Shown: positions 1 through 26,276, counted from the stretch's first letter. The stretch: DNA of 64,000 nucleotides from an uncultured bacterium (GCA_963722385.1 CAVRKK010000002.1:352001-416000); one strand, 5' to 3'. A program made the numbers and translations. The notes: generated by a model from the sequence alone, not told the origin.

Positions 1-925
1 TGGACCCGTAGGTACCGTAGCAGGCGCAACTATAGGAAGCATGGTGGGCGGTGTGACCGGCGACGTTGCTGCTCTCTTTACTGCTGCTGGTGCAGGAGCA
101 AGCTTGTACCTCCTTTATGCAACCTTAAAGCCAACCGAGCAAGACTATGAAAAATTAAACGAGCTTCTTTTTAAAGCGGGCTATGTGCCTGAATATATTC
201 AAAAAGACCCGGGACTTTGGAATAAGGCGGTGGAGAAAATGAAAAGCTTGTTTTCATCTGAGGTCACTAATATGGTCAGGAATGCAGAAAAAGTAAAAGA
301 GGGCGTTGATCAAAAAATAGCTTGGGCCAATAAAGCACAAGAAGAGCTTTATGCGCAGCTTGGCCTTGAACCCAATGCGCGAGCCGCCGCGGTTGAAGCT
401 GGCTTTAAGCAAAAAGAAGAAGCGCTCAAAGGTCGGCTTTTCTTAAATCGGTGGCTTACCAAAAAGAACTTAACGCGAGACTATCGCCGTATGCTTAAAT
501 GCCATATCGAAGCACGCCGCGCCCAAATAGAATACAACAGTGTTCTTGTTGACATAGCTACTAAAATTATGGCTGATGTAGCACGGGAAAATACCGGCAT
601 CCTCGATGGCATCTGGAATTTAATTTGGGGTGCTAAAGAGGGAACACAAGAGAAACCAACCGCTGACAAATTGATCCAAACGGCGCGCGACACTATCGAT
701 GTATATCGCCGCCAAGTGGCCGATCTTATAGCTCTTGAAGCAATGATTGAAAAGGAGGCGGAGGACATTGGCAAAGCTGATCCTTTTGGTAAAGGAAACA
801 CGTTAATTGACGCATTTAGAGATCAGTTTAATAGTAGGGTCAGCAACTTAGAAATATCATACGTCGATAACGTTAATCTTCTGCTTGAGTCTCAAGGTAA
901 GAAAACGCTCAGCCTCCCTACCTAA
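1..925 (+). CDS. 3' part of a large secreted helical protein with glycine-zipper segment; paralog of 14742..18803, start lies upstream of the window
   Basis: nt 1-414 identical to 17882-18295, remainder highly similar; frame open from window start; the ATG at 41 is internal. Confidence 0.85.
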   Translation, partial: GPVGTVAGATIGSMVGGVTGDVAALFTAAGAGASLYLLYATLKPTEQDYEKLNELLFKAGYVPEYIQKDPGLWNKAVEKMKSLFSSEVTNMVRNAEKVKEGVDQKIAWANKAQEELYAQLGLEPNARAAAVEAGFKQKEEALKGRLFLNRWLTKKNLTRDYRRMLKCHIEARRAQIEYNSVLVDIATKIMADVARENTGILDGIWNLIWGAKEGTQEKPTADKLIQTARDTIDVYRRQVADLIALEAMIEKEAEDIGKADPFGKGNTLIDAFRDQFNSRVSNLEISYVDNVNLLLESQGKKTLSLPT

Positions 926-1002: not shown

Positions 1003-4000
1003 CTAAAGCTCTGCTGGAACTGGTGCTGTCGCATAATTCACCGAGCCACCCGTGCGATGACGGTTAACAAAATATTTATAGGCAAAATAACCAGCGATAC
1101 CAGCTACAACTAACCCAGTAAGACCAGCAACCCCACCTACAATAGGTCCTGCGATTATAGCGATATTGGTCGAACCGCCATCACCTGAATTTTCTTGGCC
1201 CGCATTACTCAACCCAAAGACTTGGGCAATTGATACGTCATCAGAGTAAAAATTAGCAGTAGCAACAAGCGAGCTTCCATCTTCGGCGAGTTGCGGTGAA
1301 AAGACTATTGATACGCAATCCATGGAATCGCCTGGCAGAACATATGATGTACTGTTATGTATTATGCCGTTTGTTGTTTGCAAAAGAGCAATGGTACTCG
1401 AGCCACTGTTAGCGGTGGCAAACTGCGAAGCATCGGGCGAAAGAGCAATTGAACCAGGTTGGGCATTGCCTTGCGGTAGCTGGCGAGACTGGCCGTCGGA
1501 CAGCGAATTTCCTTGAACAAGGAAAAGAGAAATATCATCTGACCCACTGTTTGCGGCAACAACCACCGTGTTGCCATTGCTGTCCAAGAAAGAAATAACA
1601 GAAGCGGGGACGGAAGACCCGGTTGGTAGTGGCTTTGAACCGCTGTAATCTAACAGCCCATTTACAAGCTTAAAAAGCGAGATATCGTGCGACTTCGCAT
1701 TGGCAGTAACAAGGAAGTTGCTATCGGGTGTAAAGGTCAAAGCTACCGGTTGCGTAGAATTTATCAAAGAGTAAGAGAGGGGATTCTGCGGTGTTCCTGC
1801 AACTACTTTAAAGATTGTTACATCACTCGAGTTGCTGTTGGCGGTTGCAAGATAGGCATCATTTGGCGAAAAAGCAATTGCAACGGGAACGGTAGAGCCA
1901 GCGGGTAGTGTATACGAGCTAGCGTCAGCAAGCTTTCCAGCTACCATGTTAAAAAGAGTCACATCGCTCGAGTTACTATTAGCCGTTGCTAAGTAGCTGC
2001 TATTTGATGAGAAAGTTATCCCCTTAGGGTTTAACGAGCCGCCAGGGAGCGGATACGAAATACCCGGCAAGAGAGTGGTTGATTGAGCAGTTGCATTTAT
2101 TGCAAATAACGTCACATCATGTGAGTTATAGTTTGCTGTTGCTAAATATTGACCCTTGTTTGAAAATACAAGTGCATTAGGGCCTTGAGACTCTGGTGGT
2201 AAAGAAATAGAAGTTAACGGACTTTGAAAGCTACCGCACGTAAAAATTGTTATCACATAGGGGTTGTAGTTAGCCGTGGCAAGATACGAACCGTCTGATG
2301 AAAAGGCTAAGGATTTAGGGGTACTATAACCACCGGGTAAAGCATAAGAAGCGCTTTCTGACAATATTCCTGCTGCTCCCACGCTAAATATTGTTATATT
2401 GTTTGAGCTATTAGCAGTAACGAGATATAAACCATTTGGCGAAAATGCAATTGAGGTAGGCGCAAAAGAACCATTCGGTAAGGTATAAGATGTTTGTCCT
2501 GACAATATTCCTGCTGAGCCTACTTGAAACATTGTTACATCATGTGAGTTGTCATTAGCAGTAGCAAGATATAAACCATTTGGCGAAAATGCTATTGATT
2601 CAGGTTGAGCTGAGCCACTCGGTAAGGCATACGTGGTTCCTCCTGATAACCCCCCATTTGTCCCAACCTCAAAAATTGTTACGCTACTTGAGAGATAATT
2701 AGCAGTAGCGAGATAGGAACCATCGGGTGAATATGCAACTGAATAAGGGCCTGAATTGATTGTGGGCAAGGCATAAGAAATTGCCCCCGATAATGCCCCG
2801 TCTGGTCCAACCTGAAATATTGTTACATCATTTGAACCAAAGTTAGCACTGGCGAGATATAAACCATTCGGCGAAAATGCCACTGAGTATGGTTCAGAAG
2901 AACCTGAAGGCAGTGCATAAGAGATAGCATTACTCAGAGCACCCTCTGCCCCAACGGTAAATATTGTTACATCATTTGTGCTATGATTAGCAGTGGCAAG
3001 ATATGAACTGCTTGGAGAAAATGCTATTGAATAAGGATAACTATAAGCATTTGGCAAGCTATAAGATGTTCCTCCTGATACAACTCCATCCGTGTCTACC
3101 TGAAATATACTTACATTATCGGGAATACTATTAGCAGTAGCAAGATACAAACCGTTTGGTGAAAATGCGATTGAATAAGGATACGTAGGGCCGCTTGGTA
3201 ATGAATAAGAAGTTGCTCCAGATAATGTCCCTCCTATTCCCACTCGAAATACTACTACATCGTCGGCATCAGGGCTGGCAACAGCAAGATATAAGCCATT
3301 TGGTGAAAAGGCTATTGAATCACCATCATTGATGTATGGTAAGGAATAAGAGCTGCTCATTGATAAAGCTCCATTCGTACCTACTTGAAAAATGGTTACA
3401 TTTGAGGTATCAACAACGGCAAGATATGAGCTGTTTGGAGAAAAGGCCAATGAAGAAAGCCAACTGCCTGATAAAGCATACGAGGTTCCTCCTGATAATG
3501 CGCCTCCTGTTCCTACCTGAAAAATTGTTACATCATTTGAGTTATTACTCGTAGCAAAATATGAACCATTTGGAGAAAACACCAATGAAAGAATGCCAGA
3601 AGAACCACTTGGTAAAGCATAAGAAGCTCGGCCAGATAATGTTCCATCTATACCTACTTGAAAGATCGTTACAGCGCTCGAGTAATTATCAGCAGCAGCA
3701 AGATATAAACCGTTGGGAGAAAATGTAACTGAATAAATATAGCCAGAACCAGATGGCAAAGCATAAGAAGTTCCTCCCGATAATGTTCCTCCCATATCTA
3801 GTTGAAACACGGTTACATCATTTGAGGCATTAGCAGTAACAAGATGTAAACCATTAGGCGAAAATGCTATTGAAGAAGGCGATACAGAACCGAGCGGCAA
3901 AGAGTAGGAAACAGCATTTGATAACACTCCAGCATTTACCTGAAATAACGTAATATTGTTTGAAAAGGTATTAGCAGTGGCCAGGTAAGAGCCATTAGGC

Positions 4001-4278
4001 GAAAATGCTATCGATGCAGGGCTGCTGGCCCCAAATGGCAAGATATATGAAGTGCCATTTGACAAAGTGCCTCCTGCGCCTACAGCAAATACAGTTACGC
4101 CCCCGGTGGCAGTAACAACATAAGAACCATCAGGTGAAAACGCTATAGATTGAGGAGCTAGTCCCGCAGGGGAAGCATAGCTTGTTCCCGTTAGCCTGCA
4201 GATAGCCTGCATAGCAGGGCTAGAGAGGATAACAAAAGCTACCAGTAAAGCGGGGCACTTAAGGAAAAATTTAGGCAT
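1003..4278 (-). CDS. Membrane-anchored beta-propeller repeat protein (lactonase/YVTN-like, 21 blades), signal peptide, C-terminal TM
   Basis: ~49-aa repeats 'S(I/V)AFSPNGxYLATAN..SNDVTIF.VG..G.LS...SY.LP'; AGGAGA 7 nt before ATG at 4278 (preferred over 4350); C-terminal hydrophobic helix. Confidence 0.85.
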   Translation of the reverse strand: MPKFFLKCPALLVAFVILSSPAMQAICRLTGTSYASPAGLAPQSIAFSPDGSYVVTATGGVTVFAVGAGGTLSNGTSYILPFGASSPASIAFSPNGSYLATANTFSNNITLFQVNAGVLSNAVSYSLPLGSVSPSSIAFSPNGLHLVTANASNDVTVFQLDMGGTLSGGTSYALPSGSGYIYSVTFSPNGLYLAAADNYSSAVTIFQVGIDGTLSGRASYALPSGSSGILSLVFSPNGSYFATSNNSNDVTIFQVGTGGALSGGTSYALSGSWLSSLAFSPNSSYLAVVDTSNVTIFQVGTNGALSMSSSYSLPYINDGDSIAFSPNGLYLAVASPDADDVVVFRVGIGGTLSGATSYSLPSGPTYPYSIAFSPNGLYLATANSIPDNVSIFQVDTDGVVSGGTSYSLPNAYSYPYSIAFSPSSSYLATANHSTNDVTIFTVGAEGALSNAISYALPSGSSEPYSVAFSPNGLYLASANFGSNDVTIFQVGPDGALSGAISYALPTINSGPYSVAYSPDGSYLATANYLSSSVTIFEVGTNGGLSGGTTYALPSGSAQPESIAFSPNGLYLATANDNSHDVTMFQVGSAGILSGQTSYTLPNGSFAPTSIAFSPNGLYLVTANSSNNITIFSVGAAGILSESASYALPGGYSTPKSLAFSSDGSYLATANYNPYVITIFTCGSFQSPLTSISLPPESQGPNALVFSNKGQYLATANYNSHDVTLFAINATAQSTTLLPGISYPLPGGSLNPKGITFSSNSSYLATANSNSSDVTLFNMVAGKLADASSYTLPAGSTVPVAIAFSPNDAYLATANSNSSDVTIFKVVAGTPQNPLSYSLINSTQPVALTFTPDSNFLVTANAKSHDISLFKLVNGLLDYSGSKPLPTGSSVPASVISFLDSNGNTVVVAANSGSDDISLFLVQGNSLSDGQSRQLPQGNAQPGSIALSPDASQFATANSGSSTIALLQTTNGIIHNSTSYVLPGDSMDCVSIVFSPQLAEDGSSLVATANFYSDDVSIAQVFGLSNAGQENSGDGGSTNIAIIAGPIVGGVAGLTGLVVAGIAGYFAYKYFVNRHRTGGSVNYATAPVPAEL

Positions 4279-4522
4279 GTATTGATCTCCTGTTAGAGCT
4301 TGTCTGCAAATCGAAAGAAGAAAAAAGCTCATTTTTTCTTTCGAGAACATTATCGCTCATTTTTTTAATTTTTTATAGGGTACATTTGCTAAGTTGCATG
4401 AGGTACTGATGAGACTCAGAAGTGATTAAAAGCATATCACGAGCTATATAGTCATGCTAAATTGGTAGAGCGTCAAAGAAATGCAACATTAATGCTGTTA
4501 TTTTTGTATGGTGAAGGCACGC

Positions 4523-4583: not shown

Positions 4584-6800
<2,217 letters not shown>

Positions 6801-7865: not shown

Positions 7866-10800
7866 ATGTTTATTAAGGCTTTCATACGGCATGCTCTTGT
7901 CTCTATTTTTTCTCTATTAGCAATAATATTTTGTCGAGCAAGCACGGAGCCCCGGGAGGGCTACCACGTAATTATTACGCGTGACGAACCGGCATCCCGC
8001 CACATACCTAAGCTGCGCGGCCAAGAGAGCCCAGAAAAAGCAACACACTGCAAGATCATGAAGAATGGTGAGCAGATTGCGCAGGCTGATGTTGTACATG
8101 AGGTGCGCGGTAAGTTCAAACAAACGGAAATGGCGAAGCCTTTTTCGCTCATAGACGCTCGTAATTTGCAGATACGCTTTCAGGAAGGTGATAACTGTTT
8201 TCATTTGTCGGTGGATCTCAAAGGCGATATCGCGATTCACCAACTTGAGATGGCTGATTCATTTTCGCTTGAGGTATCTGGCAGTAGCAGCATTACCAAC
8301 CAGACGCCGATTTCGCTTAAGAAAGACTTAGCGATTACTATGCCTCGAGGTGTTTTTTGGAGCGGCAGTAAGGCCCACTGGCATGTTGGCGGCCAAGCTG
8401 ACCTATCGTTTGAAGAGGGAGCGGTGGCGATTTGGGGAAGCTTTGATTCAACGGGTGATCTACGTATCAAAGCAAACCGCTATACACAGCCCTATGGCAA
8501 AGCGCAAAGAACTGAGGGTAACCGATACCGTGCTACCAATAGTAACGGATATCCCTGGACATGTGTTGAGTATGATATGGTATCGCCAAAACGCTCATTG
8601 GTGAGGTCGCAGGGGAATATCTCCCTTACTGCCAATCATGTTGGTATTTACGGCGGTATTCTGCATGCAAAAGAAAATATTATTGCTGATATTGACCAAA
8701 AGTTTGAGCTTCTAACGCAGTGTAATGATCATAAGCGTTGTGAGACCTATAAAGAAGATACTGGCTGGATCTTCAAAAACATGGTTACCCGAGCAGTGGC
8801 TGATTACTTTGAAAGCTGCGACGATGTAGCAATCCTGCAAGCGGGCAAAGATTTCAAGCTCATGCTTCAGGGCCAGCCGGTGAAGATACATGATATCAAG
8901 CACTATCCGGCATTTGAAAGCACAGGCCAGATTGTTATTGGGCAAGAGGCTCATGTCTCATCATCAAACAAGCAAGGGGTTATGCATAATCATAAGTCCG
9001 ACGTAGATGATCTGAGATCTTATGGCCCAATTTCTCTCTCATTTGCTCAGTTTATCGATCCCACCACTACCATTCTCTGTAATGACCCGCGCTTTATCTT
9101 TACCCATCCTTCACAAAAAGAGAGCACAGAAGAATGGCAGCCTGGCAATGAGCTTGCATTTTTTCATGGCACAACTTTGAACAAACCAGCTATGCTTCTC
9201 TCTTTTAGTTCTCAGGTAGAGATACTCTCTCGGCTTTTATTTGAGCTCGGCCTTCCCGCACTTGGGGGCGAAGGTGACTTTGCTACCCAACTCCGGGAGC
9301 TCCAACGTGCTGGCTATCTCGTAGCCCTTGTCAATGGTAGGAAAATAGGAAACATGAAGAAAAGGGAGCCGCTACCACGGGGACACAATAAACCGCGAAA
9401 GTCGTTGAAAGATCAGCCGCAAGAAACCAAGGTCGAATTGGCTGAGGAAGAAAAGCAAGAGCTCGCCAGACTTCTCAAGCGCTACAGCCATAAAATTAAT
9501 GGTTATCCTTCATGGCTCAAAAGCAAAATGACGGACGTACAAGAAGGCCAAAATCTTGGAATACTCACGCAAGAGCTTATACATGAGTTGCCATTTTCAT
9601 TTATCTATTACCAGGTTCAAAAATTCGATGGTGTTGATTGTTTAGTCCCTGTCCTTCATGTGTGTGCAGCAGACCGTGATGCCAATAAGCGTATGGGCTC
9701 TTTTCTTGCTCATGATGTTACTATTGATAAGATGCATCGAGTCGTCAACAAGGGCATGATTCGTGCCATTAATCGTGTAAAGATACAAGCAGATACGATT
9801 ATTAACAAAGCCAATAAGGTAAAAAAATACTCCGTGCGCACGCCGTTAGAAGGCGGTGATATTATTGGCTTTGATATCGAGCTTGAAGTTCCCCAAGATG
9901 CCGTTGGTAAAGCGGGTATTAAGAACATTGGTGGCTCTATTGTGGGCAAGCAGAAAGTATCGCTCTATGCCAAGCAGGGAGACATCACCAACACGGTTCT
10001 TTTGGGAAGCCATACCGTAACGTGGGACCCTGGCTTTTTTGGCAGGCTCTTTGGCCATCAAAGCTCTTCGGAAATAGTAGATTTTTATCCAGGAAACATT
10101 ACTTCTGAGGGCAATATTGAGCTTATAAGCGAGACGGGCAAGCTGTTTAATGAGGGATCGAAAATTATTGGCGCTCAGAATGTCCAGTTGAAAGCATACG
10201 GTGATGCCGTCTTTAAAACACTTACCAACAAGCATACATCATATAGCGGTACATCGCTGCAGGGCTTTTCGGTTAAGCAAGTGGTCAAAGAGGCGATGAC
10301 TATGGAGCGCTCAGAGATAGGTGCTGGAAAGAATCTTACGGTAGAGTCTACCAATGGTTCAATCAAAAGCTATGGTGCTTCTTTTACTGCCATCCGTGAT
10401 GCCTTGTTTAAGGCAAAAAAGAGTAATGATCTTGCCGTAGTGACCACAACGCTTAAAGGCGAGCAGAAGCAGCTGGGGCTTAATTTGTTTGGGCTCTATG
10501 CTACCAGCAAAAAGCATCTGAAGGACCATATAGTCAAAACAGAGATTAATGTTGGTGGCAAGGTAACCTTTGAGTCGGGCGAGGACAATGTGCTTGAGGC
10601 AGTGGTTGTGTATGCAGGTCAATCTATTCACTTAATCGCCAAGCGCAATAATATTATCAAAGGCGCCAAAGAGCGCTCATCATCAATGACTGATAGCTGG
10701 TCATTCGGTGTGACCTTTTTTGGCTCAGATGCTCTCGGTTTGCTTGCCGACGAAGAATATCGCAGAGCTTTGTGGGCGCTCAATGATGAGGACCCACTGC

Positions 10801-13181
10801 TTGCCTCTATTCACCGACTTGCCAGTTCGGCAAGCACTGCTGACACCCTTGCAAGCACAACGATGATGGGTATTGAGGCTTTGCGCTTGTTTAATCAGTA
10901 CAAGCAGAAAGAAGGAAGCACCGGCAAGTTCTTGGCCGTGCGGTTGGGTATTGCCGATGCACAAGGCTCCTTCGCGCCTGATTTATATTTCAATATTGCA
11001 CATGATACCATACGCCGCGAGCAAACCATTACGGTGCCGAGCCATATTTCTGGTCAAGAAGTCCATATCGAGAGTGGCGATGATGTTCAGCTTGACGGAA
11101 CAACCCTAGAAGCCGAGAAAGCAACCATTAAGGGACAGAACTTCCAAGCAACTGCAGCACAACATACGGTCACCGTTAATCAACAATCACAAAGTGTTGG
11201 TGTAACGCTTAGTGGTACCGTTGACGCATCAAAGCAGACAAGCACTTCATATACGGTGACGCATGATAATGCGCAGATAAACGCCGATACCATCGTCATT
11301 GATGTCAAGAATGCAGAGCTCAAAGGAGCCCGGGTACAGGGCATCTCTACAACCATTAATGTTGAGCATAACCTGATGGTGGAATCAGTTGAGGATACGC
11401 ACTATAGCTTTTCGAGCGGTGCTAGTGCCTATGTTGGTTCAGCGGCTGGTGGCGCATATTATGCTCAAAAAGAGACCTATGAACATAAAGTTAGCCAAGC
11501 TTCAGGTATTGAGGGCACCGAGCATCTTGAGGTGCACGTCGGCGATACGATAGATCTCACGGGCGCTTATATAAGCAGTGACTCAACCAACGCCACCGTC
11601 AAAGCTCGCCACCTCGCTTCTGAAGATATTCATGAAGGCAAAGAAACGCGCGGCTTTAGTGTTGGTGGTAGCTTTATACCTAATGGTGATGACCTTGGTC
11701 TCTATGGCATGATCGATGGGCGCTATACTTCTAAGTCGAAAGACGGTATTACACGGGCAACCATTTCCGAAAACATAGACCTTGATATTTTGGGTGCCGC
11801 GATTGCCGAGTTAAATCGCAATATGCGCATGATGCAAGAGACATATGTTGAAGATGAAACAGTTATGCGCTTGGTGATACCAATCATCAACCCGTCAAAG
11901 TTTGCCCAGAAGATGCAGCGCATTAAAGAGTTATTTGCTGAAGACGGCAATAACCTCGACGCCATCAATCAAACAATGAAAGAGGCTGCAGCGGAACAAC
12001 GAGAAGAGATTAAGCAGCAAGCGCGGGATGCTGAGGAGAAGCTTCTTAACGAGTTCCTTGAGCAGAAAAAGAAGCAGGGAGAGCCGTTTACGTCACATGA
12101 AGCAGAGTTCGCCGAAAACATGGCATCAGGGCAGCCTGCAGAAAAAAGTGAAGATCTCAAGGACGTGCTCAGGGAAAATTTTGATCAAAAATATCCTGGT
12201 ACCGAGGGATACGCTGCACAACGTGAGGATGAGGACCTCGAAGAGATTAATCTCGATGACCAAGCAGGTGAGCGAACTTGGGAACAGCCGGTTGAATCAG
12301 CCGCATCAGAAGAAACAGCAGATTTCGTAGAACTAAACGACTTGTATGACATCTATGAGTTCAACAGGCAAGACGGTGATACTACCATAACAACAGATGT
12401 TGCTCAAGATTCACCGGGAATGGACGATCAGGAATCATCGGATGCTTCAGACGTTGCTGAACAAATTTACCAAGAGCTTGAAGATATTTGCGAATCGCAG
12501 GCGAACCAAGAAATGCTCTATGATGAGTCACCCTCATTCGTTCGACCATTCTTATCGACCATGCTCGACTTCGTACCGATTGTAGGCAACGTTAAATCTG
12601 CCGCTGAGCTTGGCCTTGGCCGGGATTATATAGGAGGACAAGATATTGGCTATGGCGAACGCGCCTTGCGCACCGCTGCTGTTATATTTCCCTATGTAAA
12701 ACACTTAAAATTTGTTAGAACAGTACTGTGGCCCGTCAAATTCTTGGCAAACAAGACAGGCAAGAAACTAAAAAATCTGAAAGATAAGGCGGCTTCTGCC
12801 ATCCTAAGGCCATTGGCAATAAATGCTGCTCGCCTGGGTTTTATCGAGCTTGGTGGAGAAGCTGGCCATATCGCAACAAAAGAAGCCGCCGAAAAAATTG
12901 CTGCTGCATTTAAAGGAGCAACTCTAAAAGGAGCTCAAGGAAAAGGATGGAAGGTCAAGATTCCAAACGGGAAAAAGGAATTTACTGTTAGAATTATGGA
13001 AGCCGGCTCTGGTGGGAGAATGGAACCTTATTTTAGGATTGGCATCAGTGGCGAATCAGCTTTAACTTCAGCCGGACAGCTTATGGCAGATCCTAAATTA
13101 ACTCACTTCGATTTGACAAGTAATTATCTTATCCAAATTCAAGAAATGATTTCACAATACAAGATAAGGTATAAAAAATGA
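7866..13181 (+). CDS. Polymorphic toxin: signal peptide, haemagglutinin (FHA-2-like) repeats, acidic linker, PT-TG-like pre-toxin domain, C-terminal putative nuclease
   Basis: CdiA-like motif YYQVQKFDGVDCLVPVLHV; FHA-like repeats (GKLFNEGSKI, SEIGAGKNLTVES); LDFVPIVGNVKSAAELGLGRDYIGG is PT-TG-like; basic ~110-aa tip. Confidence 0.8.
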   Translation: MFIKAFIRHALVSIFSLLAIIFCRASTEPREGYHVIITRDEPASRHIPKLRGQESPEKATHCKIMKNGEQIAQADVVHEVRGKFKQTEMAKPFSLIDARNLQIRFQEGDNCFHLSVDLKGDIAIHQLEMADSFSLEVSGSSSITNQTPISLKKDLAITMPRGVFWSGSKAHWHVGGQADLSFEEGAVAIWGSFDSTGDLRIKANRYTQPYGKAQRTEGNRYRATNSNGYPWTCVEYDMVSPKRSLVRSQGNISLTANHVGIYGGILHAKENIIADIDQKFELLTQCNDHKRCETYKEDTGWIFKNMVTRAVADYFESCDDVAILQAGKDFKLMLQGQPVKIHDIKHYPAFESTGQIVIGQEAHVSSSNKQGVMHNHKSDVDDLRSYGPISLSFAQFIDPTTTILCNDPRFIFTHPSQKESTEEWQPGNELAFFHGTTLNKPAMLLSFSSQVEILSRLLFELGLPALGGEGDFATQLRELQRAGYLVALVNGRKIGNMKKREPLPRGHNKPRKSLKDQPQETKVELAEEEKQELARLLKRYSHKINGYPSWLKSKMTDVQEGQNLGILTQELIHELPFSFIYYQVQKFDGVDCLVPVLHVCAADRDANKRMGSFLAHDVTIDKMHRVVNKGMIRAINRVKIQADTIINKANKVKKYSVRTPLEGGDIIGFDIELEVPQDAVGKAGIKNIGGSIVGKQKVSLYAKQGDITNTVLLGSHTVTWDPGFFGRLFGHQSSSEIVDFYPGNITSEGNIELISETGKLFNEGSKIIGAQNVQLKAYGDAVFKTLTNKHTSYSGTSLQGFSVKQVVKEAMTMERSEIGAGKNLTVESTNGSIKSYGASFTAIRDALFKAKKSNDLAVVTTTLKGEQKQLGLNLFGLYATSKKHLKDHIVKTEINVGGKVTFESGEDNVLEAVVVYAGQSIHLIAKRNNIIKGAKERSSSMTDSWSFGVTFFGSDALGLLADEEYRRALWALNDEDPLLASIHRLASSASTADTLASTTMMGIEALRLFNQYKQKEGSTGKFLAVRLGIADAQGSFAPDLYFNIAHDTIRREQTITVPSHISGQEVHIESGDDVQLDGTTLEAEKATIKGQNFQATAAQHTVTVNQQSQSVGVTLSGTVDASKQTSTSYTVTHDNAQINADTIVIDVKNAELKGARVQGISTTINVEHNLMVESVEDTHYSFSSGASAYVGSAAGGAYYAQKETYEHKVSQASGIEGTEHLEVHVGDTIDLTGAYISSDSTNATVKARHLASEDIHEGKETRGFSVGGSFIPNGDDLGLYGMIDGRYTSKSKDGITRATISENIDLDILGAAIAELNRNMRMMQETYVEDETVMRLVIPIINPSKFAQKMQRIKELFAEDGNNLDAINQTMKEAAAEQREEIKQQARDAEEKLLNEFLEQKKKQGEPFTSHEAEFAENMASGQPAEKSEDLKDVLRENFDQKYPGTEGYAAQREDEDLEEINLDDQAGERTWEQPVESAASEETADFVELNDLYDIYEFNRQDGDTTITTDVAQDSPGMDDQESSDASDVAEQIYQELEDICESQANQEMLYDESPSFVRPFLSTMLDFVPIVGNVKSAAELGLGRDYIGGQDIGYGERALRTAAVIFPYVKHLKFVRTVLWPVKFLANKTGKKLKNLKDKAASAILRPLAINAARLGFIELGGEAGHIATKEAAEKIAAAFKGATLKGAQGKGWKVKIPNGKKEFTVRIMEAGSGGRMEPYFRIGISGESALTSAGQLMADPKLTHFDLTSNYLIQIQEMISQYKIRYKK

Positions 13182-13639
13182 ACAATTTAAATCTAACTAA
13201 TGAACTAAATAAACTTTGGGAAGGCAGAATTCTAAATCTTGAGTTTGATATCCTTCACCATAAAATTAAGTTCAAAATAAAAGTATATAGACCAGGAACA
13301 AGGGATGAACAATTTGATATCTATAACGTTGTTTTTTCTGGGGTTTCATCTTTTTACTTTTTGCAAAATACAGATGAAGATAGATTTAGGACATATGATC
13401 CAGATCCGGGAGATACAACGGAACTGACCACCATAGGTTACTATAAAGATGGTATTGGAAAAATTAAAATCGTGACTCGTGAGGGAGATGAAGATGCTGG
13501 ATGGGCAAGCCAGTGGTACTCATCGGCAAATTTTGCCCTAGAGCTCGATCCATCAGCATTATTTATCGAAGCCAGAAGTATAACCATAAATGATAAAACC
13601 TATGAGGTAGGCTATCCCCTAGATGAAGGAGGTTTGTAA
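13178..13639 (+). CDS. Putative cognate immunity protein (resembles Bacillus YxiG-like proteins, from recall)
   Basis: ATGA overlap with toxin stop; small, acidic, AT-rich. Confidence 0.72.
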   Translation: MNNLNLTNELNKLWEGRILNLEFDILHHKIKFKIKVYRPGTRDEQFDIYNVVFSGVSSFYFLQNTDEDRFRTYDPDPGDTTELTTIGYYKDGIGKIKIVTREGDEDAGWASQWYSSANFALELDPSALFIEARSITINDKTYEVGYPLDEGGL

Positions 13640-13816
13640 CGTCCAATAAAACGAGCTTCTGACTATTACATGCTTCATTTTGTTGGTATCTGACAAAAAA
13701 TCTGTTATTATCAGAAATAATATCGCTAGATTATTTAAAAAATTGCCAAATGCTAATAAACATGCTAGTTTGATGGATATATTTATCTTTTATTATATAA
13801 AACTGAAAGGACTTTT

Positions 13817-14617
13817 ATGGACATGAGAAGTCTTAGAATCACAGGCCTGTCTCTCGTACTCGCTCTTGGTAGCTGGCAAGCAACCGCGATGGAAGCTCCT
13901 GGTCACGAATCGAGCAGCGATGAGGAAACAAGCGCAAAAGAATACTCCCCCGAGGAAGCGGAACAGGGCAGAAAGCTTATCCAAGCGATTCATTTTGAAG
14001 AGACGGATCTTATTTATGCCTTAATTGGCGCAACGCCAGCTATCATTAACTACCAAGACCCAGAAACGGGCAATACACCACTTTTAGAAGCAATGGAAGT
14101 CTCTAGCCGTCCAATAATTAAGCTTCTCATTCAAAAAGGTGCTGATCCTTCGATAAAAAACGCTCAAGGCTTTCCGCCAGTTTTCATTGTTCTTAAGAAG
14201 TGGAGTGAACGTGAAGAGCTTTTAAGGGTACTGATTTCTTATAATATACAAGCTTGTGACGCACGTGGTCCTAATGGCCAAACAGCATTGCAATACGCTG
14301 TTGAACATAATTTACCCGAAACAGATGTCCTCTTGCGTTTATGGGCTGATATTAATGCGCAAGATGACAGAGGATGGACGGCTTTGCACTATGCTGTGGC
14401 ACAAGGCAAGAGCATAGCCGTAAAATATTTGATTGAACAAGGTGCCAACCCTAATATCCGGAGCTTTGATGGCGACGGAAATCGTACAGCTGATATGGTT
14501 ATTAATCCTGATACAGCAGGGAGAAGAGGTCCTATTATGGCGAGGGCCATCTTGGCAGCCCAACAAAGCTATGGAAAAGGATGGTTTAGCAGTATTAGAA
14601 GCCTCGTTGGTTTGTAA
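13817..14617 (+). CDS. Ankyrin-repeat protein with signal peptide
   Basis: GNTPLLEA, GQTALQYA, GWTALHYA ankyrin motifs. Confidence 0.88.
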   Translation: MDMRSLRITGLSLVLALGSWQATAMEAPGHESSSDEETSAKEYSPEEAEQGRKLIQAIHFEETDLIYALIGATPAIINYQDPETGNTPLLEAMEVSSRPIIKLLIQKGADPSIKNAQGFPPVFIVLKKWSEREELLRVLISYNIQACDARGPNGQTALQYAVEHNLPETDVLLRLWADINAQDDRGWTALHYAVAQGKSIAVKYLIEQGANPNIRSFDGDGNRTADMVINPDTAGRRGPIMARAILAAQQSYGKGWFSSIRSLVGL

Positions 14618-14643
14618 TTTACTTCAGGTCTTAGTTAATCTTT

Positions 14644-14670
14644 AAGCCAGCACCTTGTGCTGGCTTTTTT
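14644..14670 (+). terminator. Intrinsic terminator
   Basis: AAGCCAGCAC/GTGCTGGCTT stem plus T tract. Confidence 0.8.
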
Positions 14671-14741
14671 ATTTATATTGCAATTCATGATACATATTAA
14701 TTATAATTATTTTAAATAGCAAATTAAATCAGGAGTAAGTA

Positions 14742-17700
14742 ATGAAGCAGCTAAACGTAATTTGCGTTTCAGCTTTCTTATGTTGCAGTTTCCTTGTTCC
14801 TCTAGCATATGCCCAAGAAGGTGAAATTCCAGAAGAGCTATCGGCTAGGAAGGCTCACTTAGAAAAGGAACAAGGACAACTTGAGCAAGAATTACTTTTA
14901 GCTCAACGAGAAAACAACCCAGAAGAAATTTCAGCTATTACAAGCCAGCAAAATCAGGTTGCTCAACAGCTTAAAGAAGTAGCTCAAGAGGAATTACAAG
15001 CAGTTCCTGTTATCTCCCCACCAATACCATCTGACCAAGTGCCAATTGTAGTCACGAAAGCGAAAACTATTACTGAACAAAATGTTCTTCAGGCATCTGA
15101 TATAACAAGCTGGCAAAAAGCTTGGGAAGCATTTGCTGAACAACCTGGCAAGCTTTGGGGCAAAGGTGGCGCTTTGTTCACAGCGGTTCCTGCTGAAGAG
15201 AGAGCTCAAAATATGATTAAAATTATAGAGAAATTGCCTGAAAGCTTTAGCGCTAATCAAACTATTGATGCTCTTTCTTTTATAGCTCAGCAAGCCTTGG
15301 ACATGAAAAATAAGAATTATTTTACGCCTGGCGAGGCTGACCATGATTATGGCCAAATAATGAGAGCTTTATCTAATCAGCTAGGCCAAGTTATCGAAGA
15401 CAGCCAGTTTAAAAATCATGACCCTGAGCAAGTGAATAAATTGCTTATAACGATTCTCAAAAAAATTAAGGTAGCTCCTCAATTTAAAAATTCAATAGAA
15501 GTTATGATTGCTCGTAAAATAATTGATTACTTAGAGACTGCTGGATTTAAACAAGGGACCTCAAATGTTTTACAAAGTTTTACCGACATAGTAAATGATT
15601 ACTTGGAAATCTTGAATGGTGTTGCTTTATCCGAAATTCATAATCACGCGATTCAGAATGCTTTGGTGGAAATCATTGAAAAGAGAACAGAGCCTCTTGC
15701 TGACCTATCTTTTGAGCAGGGACTAAAGATTCTTTTTGAGATGGCCGAAGATAAAGATGCCAAAGCATTATCCAAAAAGATGCCACAGCTTTCCCATATA
15801 TTTGTTATTACTGCGAATCGACTTTTATCGAACGAATTAAGCAATCATAGTTTAACACGCGATATTTCACCGCTTACGCAACCTGGCCAAACAGAAGAGC
15901 AGAAAGAAGCATTATACCTGAATGCTTATGTTAAAGAAGTGGACTTGCTCAATAAATATTTAATTTTTACCAAGAAGAATGGCGCCAGCAAAACAGACCC
16001 AGAATTTCAAGCAGCGGCACGAAGGCTTTCTCGCGTTAACGATTTTATGAATGAACAAAAGGATTTGCCAGAAACACAAGCCAATAAGCAACTTTTTAAC
16101 AAGCTCAATAAGGCTATTTTTAAGGTGCTCGACACGCTGGTCGATGAAGGCGGCATCATGGGTGTTCTCGAGCATGATACAGAATTTGAGTCAAAAGAAG
16201 AGGAACAAAGCAAGCTTTTCAATCGGCTGTCTGCGCTTCCTGAAGATATGCTCGCTGGGATGAATCAAGAAGCTACCAGCGTACTTGAACAAATGAGCAA
16301 AACTACTGACCCAAAAAAGCTCAAAGAGCTTTATGATAACTTAGAAGCTATCTATGTGAATCTCACCGAGCCACTAATCGAAGAGAAGGGTAAAAGCTAT
16401 GGCTTAAAAGATTTGCTTACTGAATCGGCTGATCTTGCAAACTTAAGTAAGCTTACCGAACAAATCGAAAAAGCCCTTGGGCCTCGAAAAGAAGTACTCC
16501 AAAAGAATGTTAAGCGCCTCGTAACGATAAGAGACCGCTTTAATGAAATATTGCCAGAGCTTAAAGAATCTTCTCTTGCAAATATCACCGCCCATGGCAA
16601 AGAACTTGGTCAGCAAAAACAGGATCTTGAGAAAATAACAGAATATGCAGTACCCGAAGGGATGGTGCCAGAGTTTCAACGTACCTATGGGCAGGTAGAG
16701 GCATGGACGGACATCATCGACGCAGCTGAAGCATATAAAGCGTTAACTAGTGCGCCTGCTCAATTAACCGAGCAAGAAAAAGCAACTATTGGCCAAGTGT
16801 ATGTAACCGTAACCAAAGCTTTTGCTGGCATTCCTGTTTCTCTCGATTATGATCAAGAAAAAATATTTACCGATCGTCTTGAGGCTATGAAGAAGCAACA
16901 AGAAGCATTGGATAAGCTTACGAGTCTCGTGCGTGAGCCAAAAGCAACGATTGATGGCAAAGAGTACGATTTGCTGCAGGTTGCGGGCTTTATTAAAAAG
17001 CTTGCTTATCGTTTTGAGAAACTTTCGTCACAGCAGCTTGATGATTTAGAAAAAAGTGGCTTTTTGATTCATGACGTACGAGAGGGTCAAACATATTATA
17101 GGCCAAGTGATCGTGGCCTTTATTTAGTCAGCATTGCTGATACGCTTAATGACGTTGAACGCCGCGCAAAGCAGCTTGATGAATATCAAAAGCAGCATGC
17201 TTCTGGTATAGAGCCAAGCCTTCAGAGACTCAGCCCTACGGGGCGACCTATCGAAATTGCAGAGGCTTATAGACTGCAGTTGCTTATTCTTGATGATCAG
17301 GTTGATGTTCTTCAGTATCTCTATCGTAGAAACATTCTCGAGAACAAGGTTGAAGAAGCAGTTTCTGGTGTTGTTAATACTACTGCTATCAATAACCCGC
17401 CGCCACTGGCCAAAATTGATAAAACAGAATTGCTCAATGATATAAGTGATTTGCTCTCCGTAGCACGTGCCGAGTTAAGAAAGGAATCAGTCAATCCCTA
17501 TTTTGAGTCACTTGTTGAAAGTGAAGCTTATATTGAGTCGTTACCTCAAAAAGAGCAGGCGGAAGCACGCAAGGCAGCTGGCTTAACAACCTGGATTATG
17601 CGCATTATTGGCCTCTCTGATCCTGAGGCAGTTTTTACCGCTGATGAGGCAACTATTACTGAAGAGGTCAAAGATATCTATACCAAGTTGAAAAGTGTTG

Positions 17701-18803
17701 TTAATGCCAGCTTAGCCGATCTTGCTGCTCGCTGGAAGCAAGCGGTGATTGCAGGCAAAGAGACAGCCAGTAAAGTAGCATGGTACAGCGCAATCCCCGC
17801 CGCTGTTGTTGCTTTCTTTGCCACTAAAATAACGGTACAGGCGGGAGCGCCGATAATTGGCGGAACTATAGGCAGCGCCATTGGACCCGTAGGTACCGTA
17901 GCAGGCGCAACTATAGGAAGCATGGTGGGCGGTGTGACCGGCGACGTTGCTGCTCTCTTTACTGCTGCTGGTGCAGGAGCAAGCTTGTACCTCCTTTATG
18001 CAACCTTAAAGCCAACCGAGCAAGACTATGAAAAATTAAACGAGCTTCTTTTTAAAGCGGGCTATGTGCCTGAATATATTCAAAAAGACCCGGGACTTTG
18101 GAATAAGGCGGTGGAGAAAATGAAAAGCTTGTTTTCATCTGAGGTCACTAATATGGTCAGGAATGCAGAAAAAGTAAAAGAGGGCGTTGATCAAAAAATA
18201 GCTTGGGCCAATAAAGCACAAGAAGAGCTTTATGCGCAGCTTGGCCTTGAACCCAATGCGCGAGCCGCCGCGGTTGAAGCTGGCTTTAAGCAAAAGGATG
18301 AAGCGCTCAAAGGTCGGCTTTTCTTAAATCGCTGGCTTACCAAAAAGGACTTAACGCGAGACTACCGTCGTATGCTTAAGTGCCATATCGAAGCACGCCG
18401 TGCCCAAATAGAATATAACAGCGTTCTTGTCGACATAGCTACCAAAATTATGGCTGATGTAGCACGAGAAAATACCGGCATCCTTGACAATATCTGGAAT
18501 TTCATCTGGGGTGCTAAAGAGGGGACAGAAAAACCAACCGCGGACAAGCTGATCCAAATGGCGAGCGACACCATCGATGTGTACCGCCGCCAAGTGGCCG
18601 ATCTTATAGCTCTTGAAGCAATGATTGAAAAGGAGGCGGGGGACATTGGCAAAGCTGATCCTTTTGGCAAAGGAAACACGTTAATTGACGCCTTTAGAGA
18701 TCAATTTAATAGCAGGGTTAGCAACTTAGAAACCTCATATGTCGACAATGTTAATCTTCTGCTTGAGTCTCAAGGTAAAAAAACGCTCAGCCTGCCTACC
18801 TAA
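14742..18803 (+). CDS. Large secreted coiled-coil/helical protein with glycine-zipper hydrophobic segment
   Basis: AGGAG RBS, signal peptide ending AYA, E/K/Q-rich helices, GGTIGSAIGPVGTVAGATIG segment. Confidence 0.85.
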   Translation: MKQLNVICVSAFLCCSFLVPLAYAQEGEIPEELSARKAHLEKEQGQLEQELLLAQRENNPEEISAITSQQNQVAQQLKEVAQEELQAVPVISPPIPSDQVPIVVTKAKTITEQNVLQASDITSWQKAWEAFAEQPGKLWGKGGALFTAVPAEERAQNMIKIIEKLPESFSANQTIDALSFIAQQALDMKNKNYFTPGEADHDYGQIMRALSNQLGQVIEDSQFKNHDPEQVNKLLITILKKIKVAPQFKNSIEVMIARKIIDYLETAGFKQGTSNVLQSFTDIVNDYLEILNGVALSEIHNHAIQNALVEIIEKRTEPLADLSFEQGLKILFEMAEDKDAKALSKKMPQLSHIFVITANRLLSNELSNHSLTRDISPLTQPGQTEEQKEALYLNAYVKEVDLLNKYLIFTKKNGASKTDPEFQAAARRLSRVNDFMNEQKDLPETQANKQLFNKLNKAIFKVLDTLVDEGGIMGVLEHDTEFESKEEEQSKLFNRLSALPEDMLAGMNQEATSVLEQMSKTTDPKKLKELYDNLEAIYVNLTEPLIEEKGKSYGLKDLLTESADLANLSKLTEQIEKALGPRKEVLQKNVKRLVTIRDRFNEILPELKESSLANITAHGKELGQQKQDLEKITEYAVPEGMVPEFQRTYGQVEAWTDIIDAAEAYKALTSAPAQLTEQEKATIGQVYVTVTKAFAGIPVSLDYDQEKIFTDRLEAMKKQQEALDKLTSLVREPKATIDGKEYDLLQVAGFIKKLAYRFEKLSSQQLDDLEKSGFLIHDVREGQTYYRPSDRGLYLVSIADTLNDVERRAKQLDEYQKQHASGIEPSLQRLSPTGRPIEIAEAYRLQLLILDDQVDVLQYLYRRNILENKVEEAVSGVVNTTAINNPPPLAKIDKTELLNDISDLLSVARAELRKESVNPYFESLVESEAYIESLPQKEQAEARKAAGLTTWIMRIIGLSDPEAVFTADEATITEEVKDIYTKLKSVVNASLADLAARWKQAVIAGKETASKVAWYSAIPAAVVAFFATKITVQAGAPIIGGTIGSAIGPVGTVAGATIGSMVGGVTGDVAALFTAAGAGASLYLLYATLKPTEQDYEKLNELLFKAGYVPEYIQKDPGLWNKAVEKMKSLFSSEVTNMVRNAEKVKEGVDQKIAWANKAQEELYAQLGLEPNARAAAVEAGFKQKDEALKGRLFLNRWLTKKDLTRDYRRMLKCHIEARRAQIEYNSVLVDIATKIMADVARENTGILDNIWNFIWGAKEGTEKPTADKLIQMASDTIDVYRRQVADLIALEAMIEKEAGDIGKADPFGKGNTLIDAFRDQFNSRVSNLETSYVDNVNLLLESQGKKTLSLPT

Positions 18804-22942: not shown

Positions 22943-25900
22943 TTATAACTCTTGCCCTACCGCTATCGTTTCCATTTCCGGCGAGTAATTAACACTGCCT
23001 ATACCATGATGGCGAGCGAAATATTTCCAGGCAAAATAAGCGGCTATGCCAATTACCACAGCACCAGTCAGAGCACCAACGCCAGCGATAATAGGCCCTA
23101 CAATGATACCAATGTTTGTAGAGCTACCACTGCCATCACCCGAATATCCTCCTGTGCTACTTGCTCCAAAAATTTGGGAAATTGATACATCGTCAGAATA
23201 AAAGTTAGCAGTAGCAAGGAGAGAATTACCTGTATCAGATAAAATAGGAGAAAAAGCTATTGATACACAGTATGTTGAATTTCCTGGCAATATATGTGTT
23301 GTTCGATTGCCTAAAATGGCGTCTTTTGAAAACTCAATAAGAGCAACGGTATCAGAACCGCTATTGCTTGCAGCAAGGAAAGAACCATCGGCTGACAGGC
23401 CTATAGATCCTGGCTGGGCATTGCCTTGGGCAATTTGGCGTGATTGCCCTTCTGATAAAGCGCCATTTATAATCGCAAAAAGAGTAATATCATCAGAACC
23501 ACTGTTTGCAGCAACAACAACGGTGTTTCCATTATTATCTACGAAAGAAACAACTGAACTAGGAACTGATGATCCTTTTGGTATTGGCTTCGACATACTA
23601 TTGCTCAGTACACCATTTGTTAATTCAAAAAGTGTTATATCATATGATTTGGCATTGGCCGTAACGAGGTAGCTATTGTCTGGCGTGAAGGTTAACGCTA
23701 CGGGCTGAGTCGAGTTAGCTTGGTAAGCGGTATGAAAGAGGGTTATTGAGAGCCCCTGCTATAAAGTTAAAAAGAGTAACATCATTTGAGCCGCTGTTAG
23801 CTGTCGCAAGGTAGCTATCATCTGAAGAAAAGGCAACGGCATGAGGGTTTATAGAGCTACTTGGTAAAGGATAAGAGGTCGCTCCTTGTAGTTGGCCTAT
23901 TGATACTTTAAAAAGAGTAACATCACTTGAGTTGCTGTTTGCCGTTGCAAGATAAGTACTGTTTGATGAAAATGTAATTCCTACAGGACCAAGTGAACCT
24001 ACTGGCAGCGGATAGGACACACCAGGAAATAAAGGTGCTGTAAAATTGCCTGTGTTTACTTGAAAAAGCGTTGCGTCATTTGAGTTATAGTTTGCTGTTG
24101 CTAAGTACTGTTCATTGTCCGAAAATGCTATTGCTGCTGGATTTTGGGATTCTGGAGGTAATGGTACAGATACGAGTGAAGTTGAAAAGGTGCCACAATT
24201 AAATATCGTTACTATATACGGATTATTATTGTTGGCAGTAGCAAGATATAAGCTGTTTGGCGAAAATGCTACCGAAGCAGGACAACTATAGCCGCCAGGA
24301 AAGCATAGGAAGCTGGTCTTGTTAGAACACCTCCTGCCGCTACATTAAAAAGTGTTACTGAGAAGAGTTTTCATTAGCAATGGCAAGATGTAACCCGTCA
24401 GGTGAAAAGGCTACCGATTGAGGGTTGCTAAAACCGCTTGGTAACGCATATGACACTGCTCCCGACAACACTCCTCCTACTCCAATCTGGAATATTGTTA
24501 CATCATTTGAGAATATATTAGCGATAGCAAGATATAACCATCAGGCGAAAAGGCTACTGAGTATGGAGAACTAGAGCCGCTGGTAATGCATATGATATTG
24601 CTCCCGATAATACGCCCCCTGCTCCCAACCTGGAATAGTGTTACATCATTTGAGCCGTTATTAGCGGTGGCAAGATAGGACCCATCTGGTGAGAATGCTA
24701 CTGAGATAGCGATCGTCTGAACTGGAAGGCAATGCATAAGTTACAGCTCCCGATAATATTCCTCCTGCATCCTACTTGAAACATTGTTACGTCATTTGTG
24801 CCTGGGGTGGCAATAGCAAGATATAAACCATTGGGAGAAAATGCTACTGAAGCATGGGCTCGAACTAGAGCCGCTCGGTAATGACATATGAGATTGCTTG
24901 CGATAATACTCCTCCTGATCCTACTTGAAATATTGTTACGTCGTTCGAGAATATAATTAGCAGTAGCAAGATACGATCCATTAGGTGAAAATGCTACTGA
25001 GAAAGGATGTGTAGAACCGAGGGTAATGCATACGAAGTCCATTCCTGATGATACTCCTCCAGCTCCTACCGTGAAATATAGTTATATCATTTGAATAGAA
25101 ATTAGCAGTAGCAAGATATGAGCCATTAGGTGAAAATGCTATTGATCGAGGATCGATAGGACCGTTCGGTAATGCATATGAAGTTGCTCCTGATAATGCT
25201 CCTCCTACACCTACCTGAAATACCGTTACATCATTTGAACCATTAGCGGTAGCAAGATAAGCCCCATCAGGTGAAAAAGCTACTGAATTAAGGGTATAAG
25301 AACCGCTTGGTAATGCATAAGAAGTTCCCTCTGATAGCACACCTCCGGCTCCTACTTGAAATACCGTTACATCATTCGACAAATTAGCGGTAGCAAGATA
25401 AGCCCCATCAGGTGAAAAAGCTACTGAATTAAGGGTATAAGAATCGCTTGGTAATGCGTATGATGTTCCCCCTGATAGCGCTCCTTCCGCTCCTACTTGA
25501 AATATCGTTACATTATCTGAACCATAATTAGCAGTAGCAAGATAGGATCCATCAGGTGAAAATGCTACTGATTGAGGGTAGAAAGAAACACTTGGTAATG
25601 CATAAGAAGTTCCCTCTGATAGCACACCTCCTACACCTACCTGAAACAATGTTACATCACTAGAGTTATAATTACCTGTAGCAAGATATGATCCATTAGG
25701 TGAAAACGCTATTGAAGTAGGATTAATAGAGCCGCTCGGCATGACATATGAGATTGCTTGCGATAATACTCCTCCTGATCCAATTTGAAATATTGTTACG
25801 TCGTTCGAGTTACAATTAGCAGTAGCAAGATACGATCCATTAGGTGAAAACGCTACTGAGAAAGGATTGATAGAACCGCTTGGTAATGCATACGAAACCG

Positions 25901-26276
25901 CTCCCGATAATACTCCTCCTGATCCAATCTGAAATATAGTTATATCATTTGAATAGAAATTAGCAGTAGCAAGATATGAGCCATTAGGTGAAAACGCTAC
26001 TGACTCAGGACCACTAGAACCAAGGGGTAACGTATATGAATTTTGGCTACTTAGCACACCTCCACTTCCTATCGTAAAGAATGTTATACTAGCTGAGCCA
26101 CTGTTAGCTGTTGCTATGTAAGATCCATCAGGGGAAAATGCTACTGAAATTGGATTTAATTGAGCAAGTGAAGCATAACTTGTGCCTGTAAGCCTGCAGA
26201 GAGCAGATACCTTAGCAGCGACTAAAAAGAAAACCGCTAACAAAAAAAAGAGGTATTTATTGTAATACAGAGCCAT
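22943..26276 (-). pseudogene. Frameshifted beta-propeller paralog of 1003..4278 (pseudogene or uncorrected sequence errors)
   Basis: Five ORF pieces are collinear with the intact paralog (LCRLTGTSYAS ... GSVNY...EL); indels at about 23715 and 24290-25080. Confidence 0.75.

Follow-up and report, generated by a model that had tools for sequence, protein, structure and literature searches.

A predicted CdiA-derived polymorphic toxin-immunity system, probably uncoupled from two-partner secretion, in a putative Babelota genome

The DNA analysed here (the window, 64,000 nucleotides; G000:C2:352001-416000) belongs to a source genome, G000, of 1.6 Mb in two contigs and 93% complete. On its plus strand, ORF calling and Pfam delimit a gene for a CdiA-derived toxin of 1771 aa without a TPS match (7866..13181) and, by Pfam and gene linkage, a YxiG-like gene (PF24711) for a putative immunity protein of 153 aa (13178..13639). 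The conserved body of the toxin, its variable tips, the adjacent immunity gene and the orphan modules found elsewhere are, as judged from sequence, those of a polymorphic toxin system. On balance this system is probably derived from CdiA and uncoupled from two-partner secretion. The source lineage appears to be Babelota (Dependentiae/TM6), considering the genome size, the ATP/ADP translocase homologs, the two secretins and the many signal-peptide ankyrin genes of G000; all TM6 genomes studied are reported to have two gspD copies (PMC4776705).

Results

Locus and architecture of the toxin

The two open reading frames occupy the coordinates originally predicted and are coupled as expected, sharing an ATGA overlap at 13178-13181. 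Pfam searches recognized in the toxin Fil_haemagg_2 (PF13332), in five stretches (E 3e-23), and PT-TG (PF14449) at aa 1562-1616 (E 1e-8, above cut-off), and in the downstream protein YxiG (PF24711, E 5e-38); the NCBIfam search made in following up the toxin gave no match.

The toxin starts with a Sec-type signal peptide (aa 1-25; 7866..7940), in agreement with the original prediction: the single strongly hydrophobic 19-mer of the protein is N-terminal (KD 2.14), the Sec/SPI type and the cleavage site being assigned by eye. It is followed by a family-specific all-beta cap (aa ~26-130; 7941..8255), located at the TPS position of CdiA and defined by the family alignment, a model of pLDDT 92 and the lack of a TPS-core profile match, and by a short FHA-1-type beta-helix (aa ~131-340; 8256..8885), with Cys pairs near its end, recognized by the model, HHalign and ESM features. 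The latter lie near Fil_haemagg clusters at 0.90, the helix being under Pfam significance in the window protein. So, what had been predicted as an unknown N-terminal domain is a cap plus a short helix, and the long FHA-1 stalk said to be missing is short rather than absent, as this helix stands behind the cap; the stalks of relatives are longer by several hundred residues.

A poorly conserved segment comes next (8886..9182), where domain order alone would place the CdiA receptor-binding domain (PMC9086364). It precedes a homolog of the CdiA YP/FHA-2 junction with a family insertion of ~70 aa (aa 440-708; 9183..9989), an FHA-2 region matched by PF13332 with a family-specific helical insert near aa 950-1040 (aa ~620-1345; 9723..11900), an acidic linker with 27% D+E and a net charge of -40 (aa 1346-1560; 11901..12545), and the PT-TG pre-toxin domain (12549..12713). 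At a tip-switch point (aa ~1642; 12789..12790), paralogs and public-run contigs diverge into a tip of type B, while the window protein continues into a toxin tip of type A without Pfam family (12792..13181), whose net charge is +6, that of the downstream protein being -10. The invariant residues of tip A are three Arg, AGSG, Tyr and Thr-His, in the arrangement R-x-M-x-AGSG-x-R..Y-x-R and TH. The FHA-2-like repeats, the PT-TG-like domain, the acidic linker and the basic tip, all of them anticipated, were confirmed by the Pfam matches and the charge counts. The absence of a VENN motif was also borne out, as none of VENN, LENN and ELYN, the three cleavage motifs looked for, occurs in the toxin; CDI cleavage motifs other than VENN exist (PMC9086364).

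Retention of a conserved CdiA segment

The domain order of CdiA is given as SS-TPS-FHA-1-RBD-YP-FHA-2-PT-CT (PMC9086364, PMC7662968). When 13 family rows were compared by HHalign with 9 canonical CdiA rows, toxin aa 440-708 aligned with the conserved CdiA segment that runs from an LGDG-YEQRL-like motif through LVPQVY into FHA-2 (98.5%, E 3e-15), which upholds the CdiA-like 'YY..DG..LVP' region of the original prediction as truly homologous. We take this segment to be YP from its position and its motif. The family profile matched canonical CdiAs in a colinear manner over late FHA-1, the LVP-containing segment and FHA-2. The CdiA YP/FHA-2 junction is kept in the toxin, on the evidence of these alignments.

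The N-terminal cap compared with the TPS domain

No match to PF05860 (TPS) was found in the toxin, in the 15 stronger family matches scanned or in the 261 phylum genomes, whereas the positive controls, two plasmid CDI loci, gave 114-188 bits. The NPxG motif was absent from the first 450 aa of all 19 family rows and present in 10/10 canonical rows, with scattered NxNG in five of the 19. The N-terminal profile of the family scored 0.4-0.7% in HHalign versus the TPS core and 1-2% versus whole TPS, while from aa ~114 the family profile aligned to the end of TPS and the start of FHA-1 (88-91% when long-stalk-centred, 16% when window-centred). The proposal that the cap hairpin corresponds to the first TPS strand was rejected with a score of 0.4-0.8%.

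Concerning the fold, a first structure model (4 rows) was poor past aa ~285, with a mean pLDDT of 45. In a confident model built from a 17-row alignment (pLDDT 92, pTM 0.84), aa 26-260 form an all-beta cap that is continued by a beta-helix. The fold search with this model retrieved HxuA (Z 9.0, rmsd 3.3, 124 aligned) and FHA30 (Z 8.9, rmsd 2.4, 124 aligned); TPS domains came first, taking five of the top seven places, but tied with an acetyltransferase (8.8) and a bactofilin (8.2), and their alignments (Z 8-9) covered about 124 of 235 residues. The best Foldseek E value with the same model was 0.2. A poorer, 670-residue model placed six TPS domains on top (Z 12.0-13.5, next 11.1). This ranking would be the same for a TpsA-type helix with or without TPS, so it is compatible with both, and by fold the cap may hold a TPS remnant. 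The predicted absence of a TPS domain hence stands by sequence, whereas by fold TPS still ranks first, in a tie.

Search for a TpsB partner

In G000, PF03865 gave one 15-bit partial match, located on BamA, and two real CdiBs gave no tblastn match at E 1. At E 0.1, PF03865 gave partial matches in 167/261 phylum genomes (6 above cut-off). Among the matches listed, nearly all were in 800-1000-aa frames (44 others were outside that list), the best reached 25.5 bits over 69/311 positions, and none was a full-length TpsB in the 261 phylum genomes; positive controls gave 80, 256 and 348 bits at full length. The lack of TpsB, originally noted for the window, can thus be extended to the 93% complete G000 and, for full-length proteins among those matches, to the phylum. 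Omp85 genes number one or two in each of five toxin-bearing genomes, and a crude filter retained in G000 about twenty unassigned barrel-like ORFs. No transporter gene stands beside the toxin at any locus read.

Toxin tips and their immunity genes

Tip A gave no match in Pfam or PDB sequence searches, and a word-index search with the tip returned paralogs only; PDB sequence searches with the immunity protein, the family profile and the relative P0012 gave nothing useful. Five loci with tip A were found, four of them in Lysinibacillus, Exiguobacterium, Niallia and a Bacilli MAG, and the fifth in the genome G009. The tip occurs also on 4 metagenome contigs, and an Rhs protein encoded on a Bacillus cereus plasmid ends in it. 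In 6/6 outside loci whose downstream gene was scanned, a set that left out one contig ending at the tip and two near-duplicates, tip A was followed by a PF24711 gene. This linkage suggests that YxiG (PF24711) is the immunity protein for tip A. The ESM features of tip A lie near the Ntox30, Ntox47, Ntox17 and Ntox21 clusters at 0.88-0.91, which is a lead only, and a direct Ntox30 search with the tip was blank. From its motifs, with three invariant Arg and a His, and the ESM feature score of 0.91, we infer that tip A may be an RNase of the BECR-fold, Ntox30-like kind. A relationship of tip A with the tip of P0012 and P0015 was considered, and discarded as the alignment was colinear and not significant (E 0.075).

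Tip B is homologous to the solved CdiA toxin 5T86 (E 1.4e-16) and is followed by CdiI_ImmP (PF24172) genes. The CdiI_ImmP proteins of G000 and of another genome, G008, have 247-257 aa, with a C-terminal extension of ~120 aa past the 129-position Pfam model; the extended genes are at L006:3951-4694, L005:1472-3586, L004:9310-10083 and L016:5896-6663. As far as can be judged from gene order, the immunity gene changes with the tip: PF24711 with tip A, PF24172 with tip B, and a TPR-like gene with Ntox35.

Polymorphism within the source genome

The tblastn search of G000 located five long copies of the toxin, at C2 314192, 337429, 359866 (that of the window), 1248538 (minus) and 877441 (minus), together with orphan pre-toxin/tip pieces and extra immunity genes. 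Four of the long copies are intact; the one at 877441 is split near aa 1247 by a frameshift, either biological or due to assembly (G000:C2:873686-877441 and 871999-873720). Tip A followed by a YxiG-like gene is present in three of the five copies, and tip B followed by a CdiI_ImmP gene in the other two. Identity across the three tip-A copies is 89-98% over the first 1340 aa, 64-77% in the tips and 65-86% in the immunity proteins. GC3 is 0.44-0.46 in the toxin body, 0.29 in the tip and 0.27 in the immunity gene. The 724 bases at window 12978-13701 recur without change in an upstream orphan module, and an orphan YxiG copy (G000:C2:347316-347777) is identical to the gene of the window.

Contigs in three of four public runs track the window up to 12789-12790 and continue into the start of tip B, recognized by eye. 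As these three runs belong to one study, with the source sample possibly among them, they argue against an assembly artefact, yet they do not constitute independent biology. Misassembly as the source of tip variation was rejected, since divergence among the paralogs is 2-16%, the same proteins occur on other contigs, and contigs from short reads fork at this point too. The variable tips of the original prediction were found, both as tips A and B within G000 and across the relatives described below.

The orphan arrays of G000 (G000:C2:344315-344785) and G008 (L016:2829-3977) enclose transposase-like ORFs, whose family was assigned by eye. We presume them to be IS200-like and IS256-like.

Family members in other genomes

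The N-terminal 597 aa of the toxin matched 3/261 phylum genomes, and the family profile matched 5/261, all in one family, with one match partial at a contig end. In G009, tip A is again paired with YxiG. In G008, an Ntox35 tip goes with a TPR-like gene, and tip B plus CdiI_ImmP form part of an orphan array; in the region L016:4753-8105 of G008, Ntox35 tips are followed by TPR-like genes of 225-249 aa, candidates for Ntox35 immunity proteins. The homolog of genome G011 (1862 aa; L039:7238-12826) has cap, stalk and FHA-2 and ends as the acidic linker begins; neither a tip nor an immunity gene follows.

A profile search of 1.84 billion representatives yielded 59 matches, 21 of them at E 1e-10 or better. 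PF05860 was present in 9/11 weaker matches scanned versus 0/15 stronger ones, and most of the weaker matches cover the LVP segment alone. The cap-to-tip architecture, with signal peptides, stays open over 1700-2360 aa in 12 or more clusters whose identity is 19-33%. A barnase-like Ribonuclease (P0010), Ntox50 (P0021) and, by eye, tip B (P0009) are among the tips of these relatives, next to four or five unnamed ones. Ten or so family members are known as proteins alone. Scans of metagenome and viral contigs with the family alignment A6 found no relative.

Neighbouring genes

Behind the immunity gene lies a block composed of a secreted ankyrin gene and a 1353-aa gene (13817..18803, plus strand), which is duplicated behind several toxin/immunity copies in G000. 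Members of this block, composed of the ankyrin gene and a secreted helical protein of ~1350 aa, are also present at window 41-925 and at G000:C2 320057, 347955, 840657 and 864275-869262, the copies of the large helical protein being 82-89% identical. Near two toxin copies (G000:C2:322855-328734 and 1249201-1251155), a 1294-aa secreted protein follows one or two copies of a 275-aa gene; Pfam gave no match for the 275-aa gene or for a 341-aa fragment that was scanned. Divergent from the toxin gene there is a secreted collagen-like protein with long G-S-T repeats (window 4584-6800, minus strand), and a large family of beta-propeller repeat proteins, which have a signal peptide and a membrane segment at the C-terminus, is represented at window 1003-4350 and 22943-26276 (both minus), the latter copy being spread over several frames.

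Discussion

Export and mode of action

With neither the TPS export tag nor the TpsB channel found, the toxin would need another way out of the cell. The prediction that it keeps the delivery half of CdiA and uses a different export is supported by these negative results and by the YP/FHA-2 junction, the route itself being deduced from gene content. G000 has two secretins, two T2SSE-family ATPases, BamA, a TamA-like Omp85 and TamB, with no match to TolC in this 93% complete genome. As no transporter gene accompanies the toxin at any locus read, the proposed route rests on genome content and not on linkage. A purified CdiA fragment with RBD, FHA-2, PT and CT, devoid of TPS, FHA-1 and YP, is reported to assemble into BamA proteoliposomes and to cleave its toxin (PMC13625785). 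This indicates that the delivery half can work without CdiB in vitro, and favours a Sec, secretin-first route. Most likely, as far as the sequence allows one to judge, the protein is a Sec-exported, TpsB-independent antibacterial toxin that uses the general secretin route of the lineage. It would cross the inner membrane by Sec and leave by a general route, secretin first; it would then bind a receptor and insert its FHA-2 region into a neighbouring bacterium, where the RNase tip would be released, immunity being conferred by the overlapping gene. Tip exchange would proceed by recombination through conserved pre-toxin DNA. In a cultured relative, 44% of the proteins have signal peptides and outer-membrane vesicles appear to be shed (PMC6561590).

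A more specific proposal, which we advance tentatively and hold to be possible rather than probable, is an untethered form of CDI: the cap would replace TPS and route the CdiA delivery module to a type II-like secretin. The product would be a receptor-targeted antibacterial weapon, diffusible or carried by vesicles, which intracellular parasites of protists use on bacteria infecting the same host, and its new tip family would be neutralised by YxiG.

Alternative interpretations

The system could be two-partner CDI in disguise, the cap and the first helix turns being a diverged TPS, and an unrecognised TpsB-like barrel, or BamA/TamA, exporting and tethering the toxin. TPS domains top both fold searches (Z 12.0-13.5 in one, five of the top seven in the other), the YP-like segment is kept and about twenty unassigned barrel-like ORFs are present in G000. 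A point against the reading favoured above is that CdiA is described as folding during export through CdiB, with YP arresting that export (PMC13625785), so that a YP-like segment would be without an obvious job if CdiB is lacking. Against a disguised CDI, NPxG is missing from the 19 family N-termini and present in the ten canonical ones, HHalign with the TPS core gives the 0.4-0.7% mentioned above and aligns the family to the FHA-1 start that follows TPS, the pLDDT 92 model is at Z 8-9, tied with bactofilin and acetyltransferase (Foldseek E 0.2), and the five toxin-bearing genomes have only one or two Omp85 genes each. Altogether, we consider a disguised CDI unlikely. It is less probable still that the losses reflect decay, with TpsB and TPS gone, no export, and the loci persisting as toxin-antitoxin-like cassettes or immunity stores. 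The frameshifted paralog, the broken orphans, the nearby insertion sequences and the tipless homolog of G011 would suit such a relic, and Rickettsia modules are described in PMC11077975 as what remains of large toxins that have degraded; but the persistence of this architecture, signal peptides included, in open frames of 1700-2360 aa across 12 or more clusters as divergent as 19-33% identity, and the four intact copies in G000, make a relic highly improbable.

The target is another matter to be weighed. Following the original prediction, which contemplated bacteria or the host, the protein could be a host-directed effector, secreted as are the other signal-peptide effectors of the lineage, whose FHA-2 region would enter a host membrane (vacuole or mitochondrion) and whose RNase tip would hit the protist, the immunity gene guarding only the cytoplasm of the producer. 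This agrees with the intracellular lifestyle deduced from the ATP/ADP translocase homologs, with the position of the toxin gene among secreted ankyrin and propeller genes, and with a relative that replicates wrapped in the host mitochondrion (PMC6561590). However, nothing in this analysis points to a host target, and the orphan arrays, together with tips that also occur in CDI and Rhs systems, speak for bacteria rather than the host as the target; the diverging immunity paralogs and the sharing of tips with Bacillota also fit inter-bacterial conflict. In addition, the host-directed polymorphic toxins of endosymbionts are described in PMC3482391 without immunity genes, and presence is patchy (5/261 genomes). 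A host effector is therefore rather improbable, and an antibacterial toxin is the reading that we retain.

Relation to known systems

Compared with CDI (CdiB/CdiA/CdiI, type Vb), the system has in common the signal peptide, an FHA-1-type helix, the YP/FHA-2 junction, FHA-2, a pre-toxin domain, a variable tip, an overlapping immunity gene and orphan modules, and even tip B with its immunity family (5T86, PF24172). The window toxin differs in having no TPS sequence match, and no TpsB in its genome or phylum; in PT-TG taking the place of VENN; in its own cap, helical inserts and acidic linker; and in its size, 1771 aa with a very short stalk. At the delivery end it would work like CDI; as two features that define CDI, the TPS sequence and TpsB, gave no match, it is filed here as a polymorphic toxin system and not as CDI. 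PT-TG with FHA repeats is mentioned as CDI in PMC13483458.

The hemagglutinin-like toxins of Rickettsiales with CRCT/CRCA modules are similar in their swappable tips, antidotes, intracellular setting and genomes without CdiB, and differ in the T1SS/T4SS routes conserved in those genomes and in the studied REIS_1424 being devoid of a signal peptide (PMC11077975, PMC9111745). Likened here by description, they are a precedent for the idea. Polymorphic toxins with signal peptides ('T2SS'/MafB-type) have likewise a Sec signal, no dedicated transporter and the same tip pool, Ntox35 being listed with MafB-type export, but as described they are without the CdiA YP/FHA-2 delivery half present in the window toxin (PMC3482391). 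The tip A plus YxiG cassettes of Bacillota and Rhs proteins have the same tip (37-57% identity) and the same downstream Pfam family, while their carriers are different: some cassettes are on short proteins with a signal peptide, some on Rhs cores, and others are orphans close to a VgrG/DUF4280/PT-TG cluster. Concerning novelty, no description of the toxin family, or of YxiG as an immunity protein, was found in the literature consulted, where the supplements of PMC13483458 (Table S1) and 10.1101/2021.10.19.465003 may list the architecture or the tip. The claim of an undescribed system would hold for the toxin family, but not for CdiB-less hemagglutinin toxins as such, reported in Rickettsiales (PMC11077975, PMC9111745).

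As for its meaning, the finding gives a testable role, in immunity, to the Pfam family YxiG, and defines a toxin tip outside Pfam. The toxin would be a natural test of the CdiA delivery half without CdiB, an idea whose support so far is an in vitro fragment (PMC13625785), and it would serve as a defined substrate for finding how proteins cross the outer membrane in a lineage of parasites rich in signal peptides (PMC6561590).
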